Shown one piece after another: positions 10,672 through 43,763 of a stretch of 43,763 bases of DNA. The notes beneath the pieces are model-generated. The model made no database searches, had not been told where the DNA came from, and saw nothing but the letters and a program-made list of their open reading frames with translations. How positions within the stretch are numbered: the stretch's first letter is position 1; each line of letters starts with the position of its first letter. The translations under genes were made by a program, and so were the position numbers. The stretch is from Steroidobacteraceae bacterium. Lineage in GTDB: Bacteria; Pseudomonadota; Gammaproteobacteria; Steroidobacterales; Steroidobacteraceae. The stretch spans positions 1 through 43,763 of the forward strand of contig DATNHZ010000051.1 in the NCBI GenBank assembly GCA_035604655.1, written 5' to 3'.

Positions 10672-11466
10672 CTACTCGCGGATGCCAACGCCCTTGTGCA
10701 TCAGCCCCACCGCGAGCGCGTACAACATCACCGCGAACACGATCATGATCACAAACGCGAGCCGCACGTCGACGTCCGACACGCCGAGGAACCCGAAGCG
10801 AAAACCGTTCACCATGTACAGGATCGGGTTCGCCTGTGAAATCGCCCGGGCCCAGTCCGGCAGTAGTGCGATCGAGTAGAAGACCCCACCGAGATAGGTC
10901 AATGGGTTGAGGATGAAGGTCGGGAACCAGGAGATGTGGTCGAAGTTCTTGGCGAACACGGCATTGATGAAGCCGCCGAGCGCGAATACGACCGAGGTCA
11001 GCAGTACCGCCGCCGCGACCACTGCCCAGTGCTGCACGTGCAGATGGGTAAAGAACAGTGCGACCACCGTGACCACCATCCCGACCAGCAGCCCGCGCAC
11101 TACGCCGCCCGCGATGTAGCCCGCGACGATCAGCCAGTTCGGCAGTGGCGACACCAGGATTTCCTCGATGTGCTTGCCGAAGCGCGCGCCGAAGAAGCTC
11201 GACACGACGTTGCCGTAGGAGTTGGTGATCACCGACATCAGGATCTGGCCTGGCGCGATGTACTGCATGTAGTCGTAGCCACCCATCTTGCCGATGCGCG
11301 AGCCGATCAGGCTGCCGAAGATGATGAAGTACAGGGTCGCCGTGACCCCTGGCGGCACCAGCGTCTGGCCCCAGATCCGGACGATGCGCCCGAACTCGCG
11401 CAGCACGATCGTCCGAAAGCCAATCCAGTCGGTCCGCGCCCGCGATGGCACAGCGTCGGCGTTCAT
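10672..11466 (-). CDS. ABC-2 type transporter permease (YadH-like)
   Basis: 264 aa with six hydrophobic segments and an ABC-2 pattern (YMQYIAPGQILMSV...NPILYMVNGFRFGFLG). Overlaps the upstream ATPase gene by 4 bp. Confidence 0.85.
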   Translation of the reverse strand: MNADAVPSRARTDWIGFRTIVLREFGRIVRIWGQTLVPPGVTATLYFIIFGSLIGSRIGKMGGYDYMQYIAPGQILMSVITNSYGNVVSSFFGARFGKHIEEILVSPLPNWLIVAGYIAGGVVRGLLVGMVVTVVALFFTHLHVQHWAVVAAAVLLTSVVFALGGFINAVFAKNFDHISWFPTFILNPLTYLGGVFYSIALLPDWARAISQANPILYMVNGFRFGFLGVSDVDVRLAFVIMIVFAVMLYALAVGLMHKGVGIRE

Positions 11467-12428
11467 CGGGGGCCTGTGGTCAGCTTGGCCGCGGCCGGCT
11501 CGCCGGGGACGCTCGAGTTCGCGGCGCGCACCAGGCGCATGAACAGCTCCTCCAGCCGATTGACTTTGTTGCGCATCGAAACGACATCGATGCCCTGGGC
11601 CGCGAGGCGCACGAAGATGTCGTTCAGATTGCGGTCCTTCGACGCCTCGACCTCAAGCGTGCGGTCGTCGATCAGCGTCACCGCGAAGCCGGGCAGGCTG
11701 GGTGTCGAGGCGACCGCCTCGCGCAGGTTAAGCACGAAAGTCTCGGATTGCAGCTTGCGCAGGACGTTGCTGATGCGGTCGTTCTCGATGATCCTGCCCT
11801 TGTCGATGATCGCGACGTTGCGGCACAGGTTCTCGGCTTCTTCCAGGTAGTGCGTCGTCAGGATGATCGTGACCCCGCGCTCGTTCGTTTCGCGCAGGAA
11901 CTGCCACATCGTGCGCCGGATCTCGATATCGACGCCAGCGGTAGGCTCGTCGAGGATCAGCAGCCGCGGCTCGTGCACGAGCGCGCGCGCGATCATCAGC
12001 CGCCGTTTCATGCCGCCGGACAGGGTGCGCGCGGTTGCCTTGCGTCGGTCCCACAGCTGCAGCTGCTTGAGGTACGTCTCGGCGCGCTCGCGCGCCAGGC
12101 GGCGCGGCAGACCGTAGAAGCCGCCCTGGTTGATCAGAATGGTCTCCACCGGCTCGAACTGGTTGAAGTTGATCTCCTGCGGCACGATGCCGATGCACGC
12201 CTTCGCGAGGCCGATCTCCCGATCGATGTCGTAGCCGAAGACGCGCACCGAGCCGCCGCTCTTGTTGACCAGCGAGGTGATGATGCCGATCGTGGTGGTT
12301 TTCCCCGCGCCGTTCGGCCCGAGCAGCGCAAAGAAATCGCCTTGCGCGACGTCGAGGTTGATTCCCTTGAGCGCCTGTACGCCGTTGCGGTAGGTCTTGG
12401 TGAGATTGCTGATCGACAGCGCTTGCAT
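11463..12428 (-). CDS. ABC transporter ATP-binding protein (YadG-like)
   Basis: Start at MQALSISNLTKTY. Walker A GPNGAGKTT, signature LSGGMKRRL, Walker B LLILDEPTAGVD. Confidence 0.9.
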   Translation of the reverse strand: MQALSISNLTKTYRNGVQALKGINLDVAQGDFFALLGPNGAGKTTTIGIITSLVNKSGGSVRVFGYDIDREIGLAKACIGIVPQEINFNQFEPVETILINQGGFYGLPRRLARERAETYLKQLQLWDRRKATARTLSGGMKRRLMIARALVHEPRLLILDEPTAGVDIEIRRTMWQFLRETNERGVTIILTTHYLEEAENLCRNVAIIDKGRIIENDRISNVLRKLQSETFVLNLREAVASTPSLPGFAVTLIDDRTLEVEASKDRNLNDIFVRLAAQGIDVVSMRNKVNRLEELFMRLVRAANSSVPGEPAAAKLTTGPR

Positions 12429-12517
12429 TGCGTACGGACGAAGGCGCGGCGGGCTGCCGGCCACCGGCAGCGAGCCCGCAGCGTAAGACCCCGCGCCGCG
12501 CGCGGCAACTCTGCGCG

Positions 12518-13186
12518 CTAGGCGCCGGTGAGCGAACCCGCCGGGCGCGGCACCCGCAGCCGCAGTCCGTCGGCCGCGAGCAGCTGCAATCCAAGGAGGC
12601 GGACCGCCACCGCGCGATCGGCAGCGGCCGGCACCGCAGTGTCAATCAGCCGCGGCCAGAATGTCGCATGCCGTCCCCAGCGCGCCTGCGCCTGCGGCAG
12701 CGCCGCCATCGCCACGTGGTCGATCGCCGACAGCGGGATGCCGCGCCACGCACACTTCACCTCAGCCGTCATGCCGAGCACCAGGGCCGCCGCCAGATCC
12801 TTGCTCTGCGCCAGATGCCAGGCCAGAAACACCGCCGTGCGCGCGAAACAGGCATCGTCCGTCGCAGTGCCAGGCGTGCGCCGGGCAGCGTCGCCCGCGA
12901 GCCGGCGCCAGAATGCTGCGTCCTTGAAGCGCAGATCGAAGAGCGTGTACGGACACAGTGCCACGGCAATGCGCGCCGGCGCAGCCAGGGCTTCGATCCG
13001 GGCCACCGTCTCGGGCGCGAGGCCGAATGCGCCGCGTGCAGGCTCCGCCGCGTGGCGGTCTGCGACCAGATCAAGGAACAAGCGGTTGGCCTCGCCGATC
13101 GATGCGAGCGCGCTTTGATCGAGGATGGCGCGGGCCGCGTAGGGACCGTCGGGGGCCTCGCGCACACGGTTCGCTGACTCAACCAT
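12518..13186 (-). CDS. Hypothetical protein with two tandem FlhD-like segments (candidate partner of the divergent FlhC-like regulator)
   Basis: The real gene is the last 222 codons of a 514-aa ORF, starting at ATG 13186 preceded by AGGAGGGGG. Residues ~30-90 (ANRLFLDLVADRHAAEPARGAFGLAPETVARIEALAAPARIAVALCPYTLFDLRF) parallel E. coli FlhD ([57 protein letters not shown], recalled from memory). A second copy of the pattern sits at ~115-185 (VFLAWHLAQSKDLAAALVLGMTAEVKCAWRGIPLSAIDHVA...ARW...FWPRL). Confidence 0.6.
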   Translation of the reverse strand: MVESANRVREAPDGPYAARAILDQSALASIGEANRLFLDLVADRHAAEPARGAFGLAPETVARIEALAAPARIAVALCPYTLFDLRFKDAAFWRRLAGDAARRTPGTATDDACFARTAVFLAWHLAQSKDLAAALVLGMTAEVKCAWRGIPLSAIDHVAMAALPQAQARWGRHATFWPRLIDTAVPAAADRAVAVRLLGLQLLAADGLRLRVPRPAGSLTGA

Positions 13187-13299
13187 TGCATCCCCCTCCT
13201 GCAGCTCGGGTGTCCGGCCGCGCGCCGCGTGGCGGCGGCCTTTCTTGGTAATGCGCGAAGATATTCTGGCTAGCGCTCTCCCATGGGTGAGAGTACAGT

Positions 13300-13321
13300 T
13301 TTTGGTGCATTGATACCAAAA
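13300..13321. promoter_or_regulatory. Perfect inverted repeat TTTTGGT-N8-ACCAAAA in an AT-rich divergent promoter region
   Basis: TTTTGGT (13300-13306), gcattgat, ACCAAAA (13315-13321). It lies in the only strongly AT-rich stretch between the divergent genes at 13186 and 13364. A second imperfect dyad, CTCTC-ccatgggt-GAGAG, lies just upstream (13276-13293). Confidence 0.4.
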
Positions 13322-13363
13322 TATATTTCGAATGAAACCAATTAAAGACGGGAACTCATAGAC

Positions 13364-14011
13364 ATGCGAATCACAGACGATCGTTACACGCGCGACCGCC
13401 AACGGTTCGATCTCGCATTCAGGATGATCCACCACGAGGCACGGACCTGTACGATCCGCATCTGGACCGGGCTCAGCGACGATCGCATCCGCAAGCTGTA
13501 CCGGACTTACGTCGAGAGTCACGGCTCGGGCGTCAAACGCCACCGCGGCAAGTCGCCGACGCAAACGACCTTCTTCCTTCGCAACCGCGAGACCCGCCGC
13601 CACGCCTCGGCGCTTGGCGGGCTGTTTGCAACGCTCGGCCTGTTGCACGACGCGCCCGACCGCGGACCCGGCGGCTCGCTCGGCGGATTGCGCTGGGGCG
13701 AACTGTTCTGCCTCACCTATGAGACCTACGTGGCCTTCTACCAGCCGCACCGCATCTCGTTCGAGCACGCCTGGCACCTGCTGCGATTGCTGGAACGCGA
13801 GGCAGAGCTGAAGACCGGTACCTGCCCGACATGCGATGGCTTCATGGTCGTCGACGTGCTCAGGACCCCGGGTGCCGTCTGCACCTGGTGCGAGAGCGAG
13901 GCCCGCGCGCCGGCGGCGGCCGGCGCTCGCCGCCCTGCGCGTTTCATCCCGCTGGCCGCGCGCCGCGCCATGTCGCTGCGGAGCAGGGCCCTGGCTGCGG
14001 CGGCCGGGTAG
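13364..14011 (+). CDS. FlhC-like zinc-ribbon transcriptional regulator
   Basis: LSDDRIRKLYRTY...RGKSPTQTTFFLRNRETRRHASALGGLF parallels E. coli FlhC LSRGRLIKLYKEL...[23 protein letters not shown] (from memory). The C-terminal CPTC-x16-CTWC matches the FlhC CxxC...CxxC zinc site. Confidence 0.6.
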   Translation: MRITDDRYTRDRQRFDLAFRMIHHEARTCTIRIWTGLSDDRIRKLYRTYVESHGSGVKRHRGKSPTQTTFFLRNRETRRHASALGGLFATLGLLHDAPDRGPGGSLGGLRWGELFCLTYETYVAFYQPHRISFEHAWHLLRLLEREAELKTGTCPTCDGFMVVDVLRTPGAVCTWCESEARAPAAAGARRPARFIPLAARRAMSLRSRALAAAAG

Positions 14012-14039
14012 AATAACGGCGCGGCACCCCCGCGCCCCG

Positions 14040-14987
14040 ATGCCAGCGCGCCACCCCTCCAACGTGTTCGCCGGACCCTACGCTGACCGCGCGAGCGGCA
14101 TGCGCAAGGACGCCGCCTCGCTGGACGCTGCGCTCAGCGCTCTGGAGTCGCGCTTCGTGCCGGTGTGGCGCACGCAGAACCTGATCCGTCGTGGCCCGAC
14201 CGCGGCCGCGGTGCTGCTGCCCCGCACGGCGCTTCCGGAACTGGATGCGCGCGAGGCGATCCTGCTCGGGCGCTTCCAGGGTACAACCACTTTTGCCGTC
14301 GAGCTCACGGCCGAGGCACCCACGTTCCCCGAACTCCAGGCGGAATTCACCGACCTGCGGCTCGCCGGCGGATCGCTGCCGCCCGACGAGGCGGGGCTGC
14401 TGGCGTACGCGCGCGCGATGGTGTGGTGGCGCCACCGTCACCGGCACTGCGGCGTCTGTGGCGCACCGACCGTCGCATCGGATGCGGGCCACGTGATGAC
14501 CTGCACACGGCCCGGATGCGCCACCGAGTTCTTCCCACGCATCGATCCGGCGATCATCGTACTGGTCACGGACGGCGAGCGTGCGCTGCTCGGCCGCCAG
14601 GCCGCCTGGCCGAGTGGACGCTATTCGACGATCGCCGGCTTCGTGGAGCCAGGGGAAAGTCTCGAGGACGCCGTGGTACGCGAAGTGCGCGAGGAGACGG
14701 CCGTTGAAGTGCTCGACGTCGAGTACCAGTCGTCCCAGCCGTGGCCGTTCCCCTCGTCGCTGATGGTGGGCTTTCTCGCGCGTGCGCGGGACACGAGCGT
14801 CGCCTGTCCAGACGGTGAGCTGGAGGATGCACGCTGGTTCACGCGCGCGCAGATCGCCAGCGGCACGCCGAAGCTGCCGCCACCGCAATCGATTTCGTTC
14901 CGCCTGATTGCCGAGTGGTACGAGAAGGGGACCGGGCGCCGGCTCATCGACGAGCCCGGTGCGGCACTGTGGTCGCAGCGACGCTAG
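14040..14987 (+). CDS. nudC: NAD(+) diphosphatase / NADH pyrophosphatase NudC
   Basis: Internal start MPARHPSNVF. Zinc ribbon CGVCGAPT...CTRPGC, Nudix box GFVEPGESLEDAVVREVREETAV, and the NudC signature SQPWPFPSS. Confidence 0.9.
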   Translation: MPARHPSNVFAGPYADRASGMRKDAASLDAALSALESRFVPVWRTQNLIRRGPTAAAVLLPRTALPELDAREAILLGRFQGTTTFAVELTAEAPTFPELQAEFTDLRLAGGSLPPDEAGLLAYARAMVWWRHRHRHCGVCGAPTVASDAGHVMTCTRPGCATEFFPRIDPAIIVLVTDGERALLGRQAAWPSGRYSTIAGFVEPGESLEDAVVREVREETAVEVLDVEYQSSQPWPFPSSLMVGFLARARDTSVACPDGELEDARWFTRAQIASGTPKLPPPQSISFRLIAEWYEKGTGRRLIDEPGAALWSQRR

Positions 14988-16395: not shown

Positions 16396-17631
16396 ATGAC
16401 CACCACGACTCAGGGCTCGACGCCCATCCTGCTCGCTTTTTCCGGCGGCCTCGACACCTCGTTCTGCGTGCCGTGGCTGAAGGAGACGTACGGACGGCCA
16501 GTTGTCACGGTCACCATCGATACCGGAGGCATCGACCGCGCGGCCGCGCAGACGCTCGCGGACCGCGCGCGGGCGCTCGGCGCCAGTGCCCATCACCTCG
16601 TGCCCGCCAAGGCCGACTACTTCGAGCGCGTGCTCAAGTACCTGCTGATCGGCAACGCGCGCCGCGGCCAGCTGTACCCGTTCTGCGTCGGCGCCGAGCG
16701 CGTCGTGCAGGCGCAGACGATCGCGGCGATGGCCCACACGCTCGGCGCCACAGCCGTGGCGCACGGCTGCACGGCAGCCGGCAATGACCAGGTACGGTTC
16801 GAGGTCGCGCTGCGCACTCTGGCACCTTCGCTCGAGATCCTGGCGCCGGTGCGCGATCACGCTTTCAAGCGCCCCGACCAGCTCAGGTACCTCGAGGAGC
16901 GCAAGCTGCCGGTACCACCCTTCGGGGCCGCCTATTCGGTTAACCGCGGGCTGTGGGGTGTCACGATTGGCGGCAAGGAGACGCTGACTTCGGCCCACAG
17001 CATCCCGGAGTCGGCGTGGGTGCTGACGCGCGACGCGTTCACGACGCCGCGCGCGCCCGAGCGTCACTCGATCGGCTTCGAGCGGGGCGTCCCGGCAGCG
17101 CTCGACGGCGCAGGACTCGAGCCGGTCGCGCTGATCGAAAGGCTCGAGGAGCTGTCAGCGCCGTTCGGGGTCGGCCGCGGCATTCATCTCGGCGACACGG
17201 TGATCGGCACCAAGGGCCGCGTGGCGTTCGAAGCTCCGGCCGCCGAAGTACTGCTGACCGCACACCGCGAGCTCGAGAAGCTGGTGCTGACCGCCCGGCA
17301 GGTGCGGATCAAGGAACTCGTGACCGCGCCTTACGGCGACCTCGTGCACGAGGGCCAGCACCTCGATCCGGTGTGCCGCGACATCGAGGCCCTGTTGCGC
17401 TCTTCCCAGGAACGCGTGACGGGCGAGGTTACCGTGCTGCTGCGTCCCGGCAGCGTGTTCGTCGAGGGCGTCACTTCGCCGTTCTCGCTGCTGGCCGCAT
17501 CCAAGGGCGTGTACGGCGAGGCCGCCGGTGAATGGACGCCGACCGACGCGCTCGGTTTCTCGAAGATGCTGGCGCTGCCCGGCGTGTTCTACACCCGCGC
17601 GGGCAAGAACCTCACGGATCAGCGGCCGTGA
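16396..17631 (+). CDS. argG: Argininosuccinate synthase
   Basis: N-type ATP-PPase motif AFSGGLDTS, then AHGCTAAGNDQVRFE, and full-length collinearity with ArgG. Confidence 0.95.
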   Translation: MTTTTQGSTPILLAFSGGLDTSFCVPWLKETYGRPVVTVTIDTGGIDRAAAQTLADRARALGASAHHLVPAKADYFERVLKYLLIGNARRGQLYPFCVGAERVVQAQTIAAMAHTLGATAVAHGCTAAGNDQVRFEVALRTLAPSLEILAPVRDHAFKRPDQLRYLEERKLPVPPFGAAYSVNRGLWGVTIGGKETLTSAHSIPESAWVLTRDAFTTPRAPERHSIGFERGVPAALDGAGLEPVALIERLEELSAPFGVGRGIHLGDTVIGTKGRVAFEAPAAEVLLTAHRELEKLVLTARQVRIKELVTAPYGDLVHEGQHLDPVCRDIEALLRSSQERVTGEVTVLLRPGSVFVEGVTSPFSLLAASKGVYGEAAGEWTPTDALGFSKMLALPGVFYTRAGKNLTDQRP

Positions 17632-18707
17632 AATCGGTAGTCGTCGACAAGATCGCCTCGGTCACCCAGGCCTGCGGGCTCGGCCACGAGCTCAGGATCT
17701 CCGAGGACATCCCCTGCGAGGAAGGGGTCGTGCTGGTGGTGGAGGTACTCAGCAACAAGAGCACCTACAACACGCTCGAACTCACGAGCGGACGGATGGC
17801 GAAGGTCGCGAAGGGCGACATCATTGCCGGCGCGCTCGGCCACCGCAAGGCGCTGTTCGGCTATTCCGGGCACGTCCCGCAGTCGGTTCGGCCAGGCGAT
17901 GTCATCCAGCTGCTGAACATGGGTGGCGTGCTCGGGATCTGCGACTCCGTCAACGCCGACAAGGGCCGGCCCTTCGACTGCCGCGTGCTCGGCGTCGTGC
18001 TGCAGTTTCCGTACCTCGGCGAGCGCATCGGCGTCCCGGCCCGGATCGGCTACAAGCCGCTCGACTTCGATGCGCCGCTCGACACGCACGAGGTCCCCGT
18101 GATCGCGCTCGCCGGTACCTGCATGGAGGCCGGCAAGACCGCCGCCGCCTGCGCGATCATCGCGCGCATGCGCCACCGCGGACTCGCCGTGCATGCCTTC
18201 AAGGCCACCGGCGTGTCGCTGCGACGGGACATCCTGGCGATGGAGGATGCCGGCGCACGCAAGAGCATGATCTTCACCGACTTCGGCGTCGGCACGACGA
18301 CGGCGGCGGTCGGCCCCGCACTCACGCGCACGATGCTGACCGAGATGGCGCAGGGCACGCCCGATGTCATCGTGTTCGAGCTCGGCGACGGCCTGCTCGG
18401 CACCTACGGTGTCGAAGCGATCCTCGCATCGCCCGACATTCGCAAGGCGATTACCGGGCTCGTACTGTCGGCCAACGATCCAGTCGCGGCCTGGGGCGGC
18501 GTCAAGCTGCTGCGCGAGAGATTCGGCATCGAACCGACGGTCGTCACCGGCCCGGCGACGGACAATCAGGTCGGCGTCGACATCATCGCCCAGCAGCTCG
18601 GCGTATCGGCGTTCAACGCCATCACCAGCGGCGCGGGGCTCGGCGACCGGGTCATCGAGGCGGCCGGCCTCGCCGATCGCTTCCCGATCAAGCCGACGAC
18701 CGAATGA
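17628..18707 (+). CDS. Uncharacterised P-loop-like protein embedded in the arg operon (function unknown; candidate for a missing arginine-pathway step)
   Basis: GTG start overlaps the argG stop (GTGA, 17628-17631) and the stop overlaps the argC start (ATGA, 18704-18707). 359 aa with a beta-rich N-terminal ~150 aa (EGVVLVVEVLSNKSTYNTLELTSGRMAKVAKGDIIAGALGHRKALFGYSGHVP). GTCMEAGKT at nt 18114-18140 is followed by ...HRGLAVHAFKATG, resembling dethiobiotin-synthetase/CobQ/Pta-N/DUF1611-type P-loops. I recognise no GNAT, ArgJ or M20 motifs. Confidence 0.8.
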   Translation: MKSVVVDKIASVTQACGLGHELRISEDIPCEEGVVLVVEVLSNKSTYNTLELTSGRMAKVAKGDIIAGALGHRKALFGYSGHVPQSVRPGDVIQLLNMGGVLGICDSVNADKGRPFDCRVLGVVLQFPYLGERIGVPARIGYKPLDFDAPLDTHEVPVIALAGTCMEAGKTAAACAIIARMRHRGLAVHAFKATGVSLRRDILAMEDAGARKSMIFTDFGVGTTTAAVGPALTRTMLTEMAQGTPDVIVFELGDGLLGTYGVEAILASPDIRKAITGLVLSANDPVAAWGGVKLLRERFGIEPTVVTGPATDNQVGVDIIAQQLGVSAFNAITSGAGLGDRVIEAAGLADRFPIKPTTE

Positions 18708-19771
18708 GCGCCGTGGACCGCATTCCGACCCTGGTACTCGGCGGCACCGGCTATGTGGCGGGCGAGCTGCTGCGACTGCTGGCGCTGCATCCGCACCTCG
18801 AGCTGCGCGCCGCGGTGTCCGACTCCAAGCCCGGCGTGCGGCTGGCCGCGGCGTTCCCGCACCTCGCACCGGTGTATCCGGAAACGACGTTCGTCGGAGC
18901 CGTGGAGGCGGAGGAGCTGATCGCGCGGTTGCCGGTGAGCGCCGTGCTCGCGGCGGCGCCACACGGCGTGTCGGCGGGCCTGATCGACCGCCTGCTCGCG
19001 AGTGCCGCGGCCGCGGGCACTCGGCCACGTGTGGTCGACATCTCCGCCGACTATCGGTTCGCCGATGCCGCGGCTTACGCCGCGGTCTACGGCCATCCGC
19101 ACGGCGCGCCGGCACGTCTTCGCGATTTCACCTGCGCCGTGCCCGAGCACCTCGCAACGCTCGCGACGCCGCACGTCGCCCATCCCGGCTGCTTCGCAAC
19201 CGCGATGCTGCTCGCAGTCGTGCCGCTGCTCAAGCTCGGCCTCATCGAGCCCGTCTTCTATGTTGCCGGCGTCACCGGCAGCAGCGGCTCCGGCCGCATG
19301 CCGGTCGACGGCACCCACCATCCGCAGCGCCACAGCGACCTGTACTCCTACAGCGCGCTGACGCACCGCCACGCACCCGAAGTCGTGGCAATCGCGCGCT
19401 CGATCACCGGGCGGGAGGCCGAGCTTCACTTCGTGCCACATTCCGGACCCTTCGCCCGCGGCATTCATGCGACCACCCAGGCCCGGCTGATTGCACCGAT
19501 GACGTCCGGGGAGCTCCACGCCGCGCTCGCCGCGTTCTATTCCGGACAGCAGTTCGTCCGCGTCCTCGGCCAGGCGCCACGCCTCAAGGATGTCGTCGCC
19601 AGCAACTACGCGCAGCTATCGGTGAGCACGAGCGGCCGGACGGTCGCCGTCATGAGCGTACTCGACAACCTGACCAAAGGCGCCGCTGGCGGCGCCGTCC
19701 AGTGGATGAACCGCCTGTACGGCTGGCCCGAGGCGACCGGGCTCGCTGCGCCGGCGCCCGGCTGGACCTGA
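18704..19771 (+). CDS. argC: N-acetyl-gamma-glutamyl-phosphate reductase (or the corresponding N-acyl form)
   Basis: MSAVDRIPTLVLGGTGYVAGELLRLL Rossmann N-terminus, the active-site segment HPGCFATA, and a C-terminal DNLTKGAAGGAVQ. Confidence 0.9.
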   Translation: MSAVDRIPTLVLGGTGYVAGELLRLLALHPHLELRAAVSDSKPGVRLAAAFPHLAPVYPETTFVGAVEAEELIARLPVSAVLAAAPHGVSAGLIDRLLASAAAAGTRPRVVDISADYRFADAAAYAAVYGHPHGAPARLRDFTCAVPEHLATLATPHVAHPGCFATAMLLAVVPLLKLGLIEPVFYVAGVTGSSGSGRMPVDGTHHPQRHSDLYSYSALTHRHAPEVVAIARSITGREAELHFVPHSGPFARGIHATTQARLIAPMTSGELHAALAAFYSGQQFVRVLGQAPRLKDVVASNYAQLSVSTSGRTVAVMSVLDNLTKGAAGGAVQWMNRLYGWPEATGLAAPAPGWT

Positions 19772-19799: not shown

Positions 19800-20981
19800 A
19801 TGCCGCATGCAACTGCCAAGGCTCCACCCGCCGCAGCCGCTCCGGCCGCTGGCCATCTGGCGCACGTCTTCGCCCAGTACCCACTCGAGGTTGTGCACGC
19901 CGAGGGCGTGTGGCTGCACACGCGCGACGGGCATCGCGTGCTCGACTGCTACGGTGGCCACGCGGTTGCGGCGCTCGGGTATGGGCATCCGCGCTGGATC
20001 GCGGCCCTCGAGCGCCAGGCGCGCGAGGTGCTGTTCCAGACCAACGCCATCCCGATGGCGGTGAGGGAACGCGCCGCCGCCCGCCTCGTCCGCTTCGCTG
20101 GCCTCGGCCTGGATACGGTGTTCTTCGTCAACTCGGGCGCCGAGGCGAACGAGAACGCGCTGCGGCTCGGGTTCAAGCTGACGGGGCGGCGTGAGGCGGT
20201 GGCACTCGAGCACGGCTGGCACGGCCGCACCGCGGCCGCCGGCGCGGTCACCCACGGCGCGCGCGAGAAATGGTACGGCTTCCCGCAGGCGCCTTTCGAG
20301 GTGAAGTGGGCGTCCCGCACCGACCCCGCGGCAGCGGCTGCGCAGATCGGTGCGGCGACCGCGTGCGTGATCGTCGAGCCCGTCCAAGGCCTCGCGGGCG
20401 CGTTCGACGTGCCAGCCGAGGTGCTTGGCGCACTGCGCCGCCGCTGCACGGAAGTGGGCGCGCTGCTAATTTTCGACGAGGTGCAGTGTGGCATGGGCCG
20501 CACCGGCTGGCCGTTCGGCGCGAACCGCGCGGACGTCACGCCCGACATCCTGACGACGGCCAAGGCACTCGGCGCCGGCTTTCCGGTCTCGGCGATGCTG
20601 CTCGCGCCGACCGTCGCCGCGCAATTGCGGATCGAGGACATGGGCACGACCTTCGGCGGCGCCCCGCTCGCGTGCGCCGTCGTCGAGACCGTCATCGACA
20701 TCATCGAGTCGGAGGGGCTGCTGGAGAACGTGCGCCTCATGTCGGACCTGATCCGCGCGACGTGCGTCGTCGGGCCGGTCACCTCCATCCAGGGCGCGGG
20801 CCTGCTGCTCGGACTCAGGACCAGCCGGCCAGCGAAGGACGTGCAGCGCGAGCTGCTCGCGCGCGATATCTTTGCGGGCACGGCCGCCGATCCCCATATC
20901 GTGCGCCTGCTGCCGCCGTTCACGCTCGCCGAACCGCACGTGGCCGCGCTCGCCGCGGCCCTCCGGAGCCTGCCGGCGTGA
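19800..20981 (+). CDS. argD: Class III aminotransferase, acetylornithine/succinylornithine aminotransferase type
   Basis: GGHAVAALGYGHP, FFVNSGAEANE, LIFDEVQCGMGRTG and TTAKALGAGFP (PLP lysine context). Confidence 0.85.
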   Translation: MPHATAKAPPAAAAPAAGHLAHVFAQYPLEVVHAEGVWLHTRDGHRVLDCYGGHAVAALGYGHPRWIAALERQAREVLFQTNAIPMAVRERAAARLVRFAGLGLDTVFFVNSGAEANENALRLGFKLTGRREAVALEHGWHGRTAAAGAVTHGAREKWYGFPQAPFEVKWASRTDPAAAAAQIGAATACVIVEPVQGLAGAFDVPAEVLGALRRRCTEVGALLIFDEVQCGMGRTGWPFGANRADVTPDILTTAKALGAGFPVSAMLLAPTVAAQLRIEDMGTTFGGAPLACAVVETVIDIIESEGLLENVRLMSDLIRATCVVGPVTSIQGAGLLLGLRTSRPAKDVQRELLARDIFAGTAADPHIVRLLPPFTLAEPHVAALAAALRSLPA

Positions 20982-21979
20982 GCACGCGCCCGGAACGCTT
21001 CGTCGACCTCGCCGACTTCGGTCGCGACGGCGTGCTGGAGCTGCTGGCGCTCGCCGAACGGCTGCAGCGCCAGCCCGAGCCGCGCGCGCTCGACGGTCGC
21101 ATCGTGGGTCTCGTGTTTCTGAATCCATCGCTGCGCACGCTGGCCTCTTTCCAGGCGGCGGTGGCGCGGCTAGGCGGTGCCTCGTTCGTGATCACGCCGG
21201 GTCAGGGCAGCTGGGCACTCGAGACGCGCGTCGGGATTCCGATGAATGGCGCAGCCGCCGAACACATCCGCGAGGGCCTGCCGACGCTCGCCTCGTACTG
21301 CGATGCACTCGGCATTCGCGCCTTCGCCGAAGGCCGCGACCTCGCGGTCGACCTCGCCGACGAGCGCTTCACGGCGATGGCGGCGCTCGTGAACAAGCCG
21401 GTGATCAACATGGAGTCGGCGATCAACCATCCGTGCCAGGCGCTCGCGGACTGGAAGACGCTCGACGACTGCCAGGTGCCGGAGCGCTCGAAGTTTGTGC
21501 TGTCGTGGGTCAACCACCCGCGGGCGCTGCCACTCGCCGTGCCGGCCGCGACGGTGCACATGGCGGCGCTGCGCGGCCACGAGGTCGTGGTGCTGCGGCC
21601 CGAGGGCTACGCACTGCCGCCCGCGGTGATGGCCAAGGCCCGCGCCGCCGCCGCTGGCGGCTCGGTGACGGAGACCGACGACCCCAAGAGCGCGCTGCGG
21701 GGTGCACACGTCGTCTATGCGAAGGAGTGGGGTTCGACTGCTCATTATGGCGATGCCGCCAGGGACGCGGATCTGCGCGGCCGGCTCGATGGCTGGCAGG
21801 TGCGCGATTCGTGGTTCGCGGATGCCGCCGCGGACTGCCGGTTGATGCACTGTCTGCCGGTGCGGCGCAATGTCGCCGTCGCCGACGAGGTGCTGGACGG
21901 CGCTCGCAGCGTCGTGCTCCGCGAGGCACACAATCGTCTGGTGGTGCAGATGGCGGTGCTGCACCGCCTGCTCGCCTGA
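20978..21979 (+). CDS. argF': N-acyl-L-ornithine carbamoyltransferase (ArgF' family: AOTCase/SOTCase)
   Basis: GTG start overlaps the argD stop (GTGA). FLNPSLRT carbamoyl-phosphate motif, INMES..HPCQ, HCLPVRRNV, and overall collinearity with X. campestris AOTCase (from memory) rather than classical OTCase. Confidence 0.85.
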   Translation: MSTRPERFVDLADFGRDGVLELLALAERLQRQPEPRALDGRIVGLVFLNPSLRTLASFQAAVARLGGASFVITPGQGSWALETRVGIPMNGAAAEHIREGLPTLASYCDALGIRAFAEGRDLAVDLADERFTAMAALVNKPVINMESAINHPCQALADWKTLDDCQVPERSKFVLSWVNHPRALPLAVPAATVHMAALRGHEVVVLRPEGYALPPAVMAKARAAAAGGSVTETDDPKSALRGAHVVYAKEWGSTAHYGDAARDADLRGRLDGWQVRDSWFADAAADCRLMHCLPVRRNVAVADEVLDGARSVVLREAHNRLVVQMAVLHRLLA

Positions 21980-41036: not shown

Positions 41037-41656
41037 TTTTGCTGTTCAATTGCTTACGCGACGGCGTCTGTCGGCGGGCCGGCAGGCACAACGAAAGCCC
41101 AATGCGGCGTCCGCGACGCCATGAAACGCTCAAGTACCGCGGACTCGGCAATCACGCCGCTTCGCTTCGGAACTTAAGCGTTCGCCGCCTGCACGGCGTC
41201 GGCCCGGCTCGAATGTCGCTCTGCAGGGCCGGCGACGGGCGGCGCGTCGCCCGCGGTCCACGCGAGCCGGCGCATCTCCAGCGTACGTCTGTGCCGGATC
41301 AGTTCAGTGCCGAGTCATCACCACACGCAAGCCAGCGCCGCGAGTAATCACTACGGATGGGCCGCGCGCCCGCCGCGGCATCGTGGAAAACCACTGTTGC
41401 CGATGCCAGGCAGCAGCGCCTCGCACGCCATCGGCTGATCTGCGCACGCTGCTGATCTCGGCCATGCGCGAGGTCCACGCCGGTTCTGCGCATAAGCGAA
41501 TATGCATTGCGAAAATGCGTAGCCCGTGACGCGCGGCGTGATTTCGGGGGCTGCGGTGGGCGCGTATAAAGTTCGAGCGATCAAAGGTTACAGGGCTTGA
41601 TGCGTTGCGGCCTGGCGAGGCCGGCGCGGCGTCTCGACGCAGAATGGGGAATTACA

Positions 41657-43763
<2,107 letters not shown>

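Follow-up and report, generated by a model that had tools for sequence, protein, structure and literature searches.

An FlhC-like protein and a putative tandem FlhD-FlhD protein encoded divergently at a conserved, non-flagellar locus of Steroidobacteraceae

In the FlhD4C2 complex, FlhD forms tight homodimers whose protomers are non-equivalent, one being peripheral and the other internal in the ring, and FlhC contacts DNA via a zinc-cysteine cluster and a basic surface (PMC3510510). The box bound by this complex is composed of 17-18 bp repeats with a 10-11 bp spacer (PMC3510510). Relatives of this complex outside flagellar control include SetCD, AcaCD, and SgaCD, the activators of SXT/R391 integrative and conjugative elements (ICEs), IncA/C plasmids, and SGI1 (PMC4207636), and BisDC of ICEclc. 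Here, we analyse a stretch of 43,763 nucleotides (GenBank assembly GCA_035604655.1, contig DATNHZ010000051.1, positions 1 to 43,763; hereafter the window) from an uncultured soil bacterium of the Steroidobacteraceae, in which two genes stand back-to-back: one encodes an FlhC-like protein of 215 amino acids (aa), the other a protein of 222 aa that, on balance and judged from its sequence, is a tandem FlhD-FlhD fusion. The initial annotation of the window had suggested that such a pair was undescribed. Indeed, we found no paper, Pfam model, or NCBIfam model for the fused protein, and the literature and curated models yielded neither a tandem FlhD protein nor a chromosomal non-flagellar pair of FlhDC type.

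The 215 aa protein had been said to track FlhC, and the Pfam match, the zinc site, and the predicted fold all agree with this. The protein matches the Pfam FlhC family (PF05280) with 38.4 bits against a cut-off of 27 (E 1.4e-9), and a profile built from 35 homologues recovers the FlhC chains 8j56_C (E 1.9e-6) and 2avu_E (E 3.8e-3, aligned over residues 12-187) from the PDB. An AlphaFold2 model of the protein was obtained with a predicted local distance difference test (pLDDT) score of 86.7, and a Foldseek search of the PDB with this model returned 8j56_C, 8j56_F, and 2avu_E as its top three matches, each with a probability of 1.00, a template modelling (TM) score of 0.73-0.78 normalised to the target, and a root-mean-square deviation of 3.2-3.7 Å. 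These chains are the FlhC proteins of Cupriavidus necator (8J56) and Escherichia coli (2AVU), and they are the sole significant PDB matches, all others having an E value of 0.96 or above. The N-terminal LSxxRIxKLY...HAS block that the initial annotation had pointed out is present (LSDDRIRKLY at residue 37, HAS at residue 80), as are the two CxxC pairs of the zinc site (CPTC at residue 154, CTWC at residue 173), although the spacing between the pairs is x15 and not x16 as had been read. The four cysteines are invariant in the 35 homologues and align with the cysteine cluster of FlhC in 8j56_C and 2avu_E, while the last ~35 residues form a low-complexity tail that occurs in the closest relatives only. 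The score against the NCBIfam FlhC equivalog NF009365 (37.6 bits) lies below the cut-off of 216, and the protein is therefore not an orthologue-level match; by sequence it belongs to the FlhC family without being a close or orthologue-level flagellar FlhC.

The open reading frames (ORFs) of both genes were verified at the coordinates given by the initial annotation (Table 1). In the 222 aa frame, the G+C fractions of the three codon positions (0.77/0.57/0.81) follow the pattern of the real genes in the window, and in a plus-strand ORF that overlaps this gene the pattern is reversed. The gene is nested within a longer, spurious ORF; an AGGAGG ribosome-binding site lies 8 nt 5' of its start, and the start methionine is common to the homologues. 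The G+C content of the two genes is 66-69%, that of the window ~69%.

A Pfam search with the 222 aa protein returned no FlhD (PF05247) match at E ≤ 10, and an NCBIfam search returned no match. Among ten of its homologues, eight gave Pfam FlhD matches below threshold (12-19 bits against a cut-off of 27), in the N-terminal half only, while a family profile of 40 sequences matched the FlhD chain 8j56_A in hmmsearch (E 8.8e-6, profile positions 24-118). In the comparison of both proteins with FlhD and FlhC profiles, which the initial annotation had proposed as a check, the FlhC-like protein exceeds its Pfam cut-off and the 222 aa protein does not, the latter being related to FlhD by hmmsearch and hhalign instead. 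For the profile-profile comparisons, the family profile was built from 146 diverse members taken from an exhaustive hidden Markov model (HMM) search, and the FlhD profile from 89 enterobacterial FlhD sequences together with those of Cupriavidus, Paraburkholderia, Ralstonia, and Azospirillum. The latter sequences were translated from plasmid or chromid loci in order to widen the profile, the search with E. coli FlhD having listed only enterobacterial sequences of at least 80% identity.

In these comparisons, the N-terminal half matches the FlhD profile with a probability of 96.9% (P 1.9e-10, 82 columns) and the C-terminal half with a probability of 94.3% (P 1.1e-7, 84-86 columns), and the full-length family profile gives two non-overlapping matches to FlhD. 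Reversed profiles, used as controls, reached P values of 0.011-0.27, and the FlhC-like family 0.07-0.12. Furthermore, the two halves match each other (P 1.8e-5 with the 146 diverse representatives), in an alignment that pairs FGL with LGM and RF..FW with RW..FW and that has the same register as the one read in the initial annotation. The two consecutive FlhD-like copies claimed there are thus borne out by independent matches of both halves to FlhD and to each other, with negative controls, and the limits proposed for them (residues 30-100 and 115-185) are close to those derived from the profiles (23-104 and 117-203). The R[FW]...FW.RL pattern assigned to each copy end is likewise present, as RFKDAAFWRRL at residues 86-96 and RWGRHATFWPRL at residues 169-180, although the spacing of the two is not identical and differs by one residue. 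Two invariant glycines, G55 and G138, each align with the glycine of the FRLG motif of FlhD. The N-terminal copy is without the last helix of FlhD, which the C-terminal copy retains as an invariant LGLQL segment, and conservation per column is 1.91 bits in the C-terminal half against 1.57 bits in the N-terminal half.

The AlphaFold2 model of the 222 aa protein (pLDDT 88.1, predicted TM score 0.84) is all-helical. Its N-terminal half contains helices at residues 24-47, 58-66, 69-76, and 90-98 with a strand at 83-84, and its C-terminal half helices at 110-128, 141-148, 152-165, and 176-184 with a strand at 167-168; the predicted elements of the second half map one-to-one onto those of the first at an offset of ~83 residues, and their order agrees with the hhalign register. 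The protein departs from the norm of the FlhD family, a single homodimerising domain of ~105-120 aa, in both its length and its two domains. We consider the architecture alone, namely an FlhC-family protein encoded beside a tandem FlhD, to be solidly supported and highly probable.

The tandem FlhD family is large. The protein has at least 142 close homologues, and the exhaustive HMM search yielded 1212 representatives of 50% identity clusters at E ≤ 1e-3 and 700 at E ≤ 1e-10. The top 150 of these representatives measure ~200-300 aa, with the exception of one of 109 aa and one of 158 aa, and most were matched over both halves; none of the relatives that were looked up bears a name beyond "hypothetical protein". 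The named homologues of both proteins belong to Steroidobacteraceae or to unclassified proteobacterial metagenome-assembled genomes. When a single genome of each GTDB species was scanned with patterns, the locus was detected in at least 21 species, all uncultured, and this number is a lower bound since the patterns catch close relatives only.

The divergent layout, which the initial annotation had reported and which holds in the window with its 177 bp spacer, recurs in each of the 26 related loci that were checked for it, every one of which comes from an uncultured Steroidobacteraceae-like bacterium; they comprise the loci of the 21 GTDB species, L026, L027, and three short, distant contigs (L156-L158). 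The FlhC-like partner persists, divergently transcribed, even where the fused protein is down to 27-40% identity. At locus L023, for example, identity to the window is ~35% for the tandem FlhD protein, 51% for the FlhC-like protein, 70% for the ATPase of a neighbouring ATP-binding cassette (ABC) exporter, and 79% for ArgG, and the fused protein is the fastest-evolving of the locus proteins compared. Neither protein had a tblastn match among 72,556 PLSDB plasmids, and a viral contig collection held no relatives of either.

The intergenic region between the two genes is low in G+C and contains a 22 bp palindrome that we regard as a candidate operator. It is found once in the window, where 0.01 occurrences are expected by chance, even with two mismatches allowed. 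Its core, TTTGGT-N8-ACCAAA, has an exact, single match in 22 of 25 loci. In the window and in each of the 21 GTDB loci, the FlhC-like ATG is preceded at a distance of 20-42 bp by the palindrome, either exact or altered at one or two arm positions, and the site keeps its place while the remaining spacer diverges. In L027 it reads ATTGGC-N8-GCCAAT, both arms having changed symmetrically, whereas L017, L020, and L025 carry changes in a single arm that are uncompensated; the latter speak for a site bound by a protein and not for a hairpin. At the four loci that diverge most, a promoter read by eye as TTGnnn/17-nt/(G/A)ATACT (-35/17-nt/-10) overlaps the palindrome, so that a bound protein would probably repress, which suggests autorepression at these loci. 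To our knowledge, and by informal comparison, the conserved bases do not fit the ArgR box, the NtrC site, the LexA box, or sigma-54 or sigma-28 promoters.

Other short elements of the intergenic region are conserved less widely. The small inverted repeat (G/A)TTTC-N4-GAAAC, located between the palindrome and the ribosome-binding site, occurs in most of the closer loci and is absent from the divergent ones. In the closer loci there are also two conserved blocks, ATATTCTGGCT(A/G)GC at 13262-13275 and GAGAGTACAGT at 13288-13299, the second of which directly adjoins the palindrome. Neither occurs in the most divergent loci, and they could be promoter elements for the tandem FlhD gene.

The neighbours named in the initial annotation, an ABC-2 exporter, an SOS-response-associated peptidase (SRAP), and nudC, were all found, and its description of the context as non-flagellar agrees with the related loci, every one of which, where examined, is also a non-mobile setting. 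On the FlhC-like side, the 21 GTDB loci share argG, TANGO2, and nudC (argG being unseen in three), and on the other side the tandem FlhD gene is followed in all of them by the ABC ATPase and then the ABC-2 permease. The exporter is near the pair in these 21 loci and in L026 and L027, where opposite-strand genes intervene. Immediately 3' of the FlhC-like gene stands nudC in 20 of the 21 GTDB loci and in L003, L004, and L026; in the window it starts 28 nt past the FlhC-like stop codon, and the two genes are probably co-transcribed. Most of this 28 nt gap is taken up by a stem-loop at 14018-14036 (GGCGCGG-CACCC-CCGCGCC, with a 7 bp G+C stem), which is flagged as terminator-like on the minus strand only.

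In the five more distant loci, nudC or the exporter may be separated from the pair or replaced by dinB. Since the FlhC-like partner is kept in these loci while the neighbours change, it is the pairing that is invariant, the neighbours varying by lineage. In L156 (1193-2338) and L157 (1580-2743), the exporter's place after the tandem FlhD gene is taken by a convergent gene for a dinB-type (IMS) polymerase, and an SRAP gene follows the exporter in the window, as it does in about half of the 21 GTDB loci. Genes connected with DNA damage thus recur near the pair, possibly by coincidence.

Table 1. Coordinates of the gene pair, its predicted domains, the intergenic elements, and the adjoining genes in the window
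Feature	Position	Strand	Description
FlhC-like gene	13364-14011	+	215 aa; FlhC-family regulator
Putative tandem FlhD-FlhD gene	12518-13186	-	222 aa; start MVESANRV
N-terminal FlhD-like domain	12875-13120	-	Residues 23-104, aligned to FlhD 3-86
C-terminal FlhD-like domain	12578-12838	-	Residues 117-203, aligned to FlhD 16-101
Zinc-site region of FlhC-like protein	13823-13891	+	C154-x2-C157-x15-C173-x2-C176
Divergent promoter region	13187-13363		177 bp; 53% G+C against ~69% in the window
Palindrome TTTTGGTGCATTGATACCAAAA	13300-13321		Candidate operator; TTTTGGT-N8-ACCAAAA, 22 bp
Second small inverted repeat	13325-13338		(G/A)TTTC-N4-GAAAC; between palindrome and ribosome-binding site
nudC	14040-14987	+	NAD+ diphosphatase; NCBIfam equivalog NF001299, 241 bits against a cut-off of 158
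yadGH-type ABC-2 exporter	10672-12464	-	Downstream of tandem FlhD gene
Exporter ATPase	11463-12464	-	
Exporter permease	10672-11466	-	YadH type; PRK15066, 395.7 bits against a cut-off of 225

Further along the window, between argG and argC, a plus-strand gene at 17532-18707 encodes a 391 aa protein with a Walker-A-like AGTCMEAGKT motif and no Pfam or NCBIfam match. The orthologue in L003 (14873-15958) shares 87% identity with it and overlaps its neighbours at their stop and start codons; the gene may belong to the arginine operon as a member not yet characterised. In L003, domains resembling acetylornithine aminotransferase and ornithine carbamoyltransferase (OTCase) are called as one 720 aa fusion (17058-19220), while the same two parts lie in frames 3 and 2 of the window's plus strand (19866-20924 and 20996-21973), as either separate genes or the product of a frameshift. 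Finally, a large outer-membrane multihaem cytochrome resembling MtrC/OmcA (41570-43762, plus strand) runs past the end of the window and hints at extracellular electron transfer in this organism.

How the two proteins might work together can be proposed from the FlhD4C2 complex. The FlhD homodimer would have been replaced by a single chain with two diverged FlhD domains, packed together as an intramolecular pseudo-dimer. Each fused chain would associate with a single FlhC-like subunit, and a pair of these units would make up a D'2C2 assembly that corresponds to the FlhD4C2 ring. Contact with DNA would fall mainly to the zinc site and basic surface of the FlhC-like subunit, and the fusion may let the halves specialise for the peripheral and the internal position. 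The most likely first target would be the pair's own divergent promoter, reached through TTTTGGT-N8-ACCAAAA as an autoregulatory candidate, which would place the FlhC-like/nudC transcript, and possibly also the side with the tandem FlhD gene and the ABC-2 exporter, under the pair's control. Conserved synteny with the arginine genes, nudC, and yadGH, together with a G+C content near the window average, argues that the pair resides in the core genome. We infer the formation of the heteromer, its stoichiometry, its binding to the palindrome as a complex, the sign of the regulation, and any wider regulon, and we consider the explanation as a whole, that is, a chromosomal, vertically inherited pair derived from FlhDC that would act on a palindrome as D'2C2 with a single-chain double FlhD, to be reasonably probable.

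A number of observations weigh against this explanation, and they do so at different points. With respect to the fused protein, the C-terminal half had no FlhD match at all in the hmmsearch with the 40-sequence profile, and a Foldseek search of the PDB with the whole 222 aa model returned no FlhD chain, only weak helical matches (best E 0.14, TM below 0.2), which also bears on the proposed pseudo-dimer packing. An FlhD origin of the N-terminal half only, with the C-terminal half as an unrelated helical extension, would fit the HMMER profiles, which match FlhD through the N-terminal half alone, and the weak comparison of the two halves in the shallow 40-sequence alignment (P 0.0097). However, the Foldseek search did not recover even the N-terminal half, which matches FlhD by sequence, and the support for the FlhD halves accordingly comes from the profiles and the secondary-structure register. 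With the diverse alignment, the C-terminal half alone finds FlhD at a level that the reversed and unrelated profiles, at P values of just 0.01-0.27, do not approach; the two halves then find each other, and the secondary-structure elements recur at a constant offset. After the profile-profile comparison, an FlhD origin for the N-terminal half alone therefore appears very unlikely. As for the setting of the pair, its synteny with the exporter and nudC may merely reflect a stable core region, and the support for a putative interaction of the two proteins is the strict co-occurrence of their genes. The pair could also be the relocated and remodelled flagellar master regulator of this lineage, still activating class 2 operons elsewhere: both the fold of FlhC and its zinc site are retained in full, FlhDC need not adjoin its targets, and a polar flagellum confers motility on several cultured members of the Steroidobacteraceae (PMC7966939). 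Nevertheless, the 43.7 kb window has no flagellar or chemotaxis gene, and none lies within ~6-10 kb of the pair in those related loci whose length allows this to be seen. Polar-flagellate Gammaproteobacteria usually use master regulators of the FleQ/FlrA type, and when this is considered together with the low NCBIfam equivalog score and a sole conserved candidate operator that is unlike the FlhD4C2 box, a flagellar role seems unlikely. Still less can be said for a mobile-element activator of the SetCD, AcaCD, SgaCD, or BisDC type that would mark an integrated conjugative element or island. All non-flagellar FlhDC-like regulators described earlier are of this kind, and AcaD, at 22.8 kDa, is likewise much larger than FlhD (PMC4207636). 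Yet integrase, relaxase, transfer, lytic transglycosylase, and other mobile-element genes are absent from the window and from the related loci, the D-like and C-like genes of the plasmid examples are co-directional behind a lytic transglycosylase (SLT) gene, and the same housekeeping synteny is found in 21 species. The absence of tblastn matches in plasmids and of relatives in viral contigs, and the G+C content of the two genes, point the same way. A mobile-element origin is contradicted by synteny, composition, and gene content, and we consider it extremely improbable.

The points against the proposed operator concern the palindrome itself. At L156-L158, the most distant loci, it can no longer be recognised, and a sigma-70 scan of the window's intergenic region found no promoter. 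A metagenome contig scan for TTTTGGT-N8-ACCAAAA gave, among the matches listed, nearly all chance occurrences in unrelated low-G+C DNA, one orthologous locus, and one match in 70% G+C DNA (L054) that falls within the coding sequence of ruvB, and from the matches listed no regulon could be inferred. Moreover, with its 7 bp arms and 8 bp spacer the palindrome differs from the FlhD4C2 box and resembles no known box of the FlhDC family, so that it may be the site of another regulator. It might then belong to an unrelated regulator or form a leader RNA or DNA hairpin, while the pair would act elsewhere or would have lost DNA binding. The joint change of both arms in L027 (T to C, A to G) would keep a hairpin too, and in the divergent loci the site is just 20-23 nt from the start codon. 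Against this, the arms are invariant in sequence over 22 loci, beyond mere complementarity, the single-arm changes in L017, L020, and L025 go uncompensated, and the site stays beside the gene pair while the intergenic sequence around it diverges. Such an alternative origin of the palindrome is in our view less likely than not, and it bears on the operator only, not on the identity of the proteins.

If the pair were a chromosomal regulator unrelated to flagella and mobile elements, it would be the first cellular, non-flagellar branch of FlhDC. The known FlhDC relatives outside flagellar control all switch conjugative elements, and a chromosomal, vertically inherited one would represent a third setting. 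A fused, asymmetric double domain would also constitute a natural experiment on the separable roles of the two protomers of the FlhD dimer, in that it would test whether the peripheral and internal protomers of the FlhD4C2 ring differ in job. It is possible, and we put it forward tentatively, that a chromosomal regulator unrelated to flagella or mobile elements, composed of a single-chain FlhD pseudo-dimer and an FlhC-type zinc protein and acting through a short palindrome on housekeeping functions such as the ABC-2 exporter and the NAD-cap hydrolase NudC, is widespread in environmental Gammaproteobacteria. Since at least 700 cluster representatives are unnamed or called "hypothetical", recognition of the tandem FlhD would in itself be a gain for the annotation of soil and freshwater metagenomes, and the conserved palindrome offers a concrete and cheap starting point for binding assays.

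When the pair is set beside the flagellar complex (2AVU, 8J56), the likeness lies in an FlhC-like subunit with the same fold and the same four-cysteine zinc site, in a partner made of FlhD domains, and in the ratio of two FlhD domains per FlhC. The differences are as follows: here, a single chain holds both FlhD domains, which have drifted apart until they are barely recognisable as mutual homologues, the genes are divergent in place of a co-directional flhD-flhC operon and have no flagellar genes around them, the score falls far short of the NCBIfam FlhC equivalog cut-off, and the candidate operator is a 22 bp palindrome as opposed to 17-18 bp repeats with a 10-11 bp spacer.

SetCD, AcaCD, and SgaCD are also FlhDC-derived and heteromeric, with non-flagellar regulons, weak Pfam FlhC and FlhD matches, and DNA motifs of their own (PMC4207636). 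They are located on mobile elements, however, with the D gene followed co-directionally by the C gene and usually behind a lytic transglycosylase gene, whereas the pair described here is chromosomal, syntenic across species, and divergent, and has no detectable plasmid-borne sequence match. In hhalign comparisons of single sequences, a 174 aa AcaD-like protein and two Pseudomonas plasmid proteins gave P values of at least 0.016 against FlhD and against each half of the fused protein. A gene annotated flhC is also present on the conjugative plasmid bgla_3p of Burkholderia gladioli (L035, 345-1476), where it is preceded by a gene for a 158 aa hydrophobic hypothetical protein and no recognisable flhD.

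Finally, BisDC of ICEclc resembles the pair in combining an FlhC-like subunit with a larger, tightly dimerising helical partner, its D subunit having been remodelled by fusion (bioRxiv 10.1101/2024.09.16.613209). BisD consists of a ParB-like CTP clamp and an activator domain and has no detectable similarity to FlhD, and BisC is without the zinc site (bioRxiv 10.1101/2024.09.16.613209). In the Steroidobacteraceae pair, by contrast, the zinc site is intact and both domains of the partner are, by profile comparison, recognisably FlhD.

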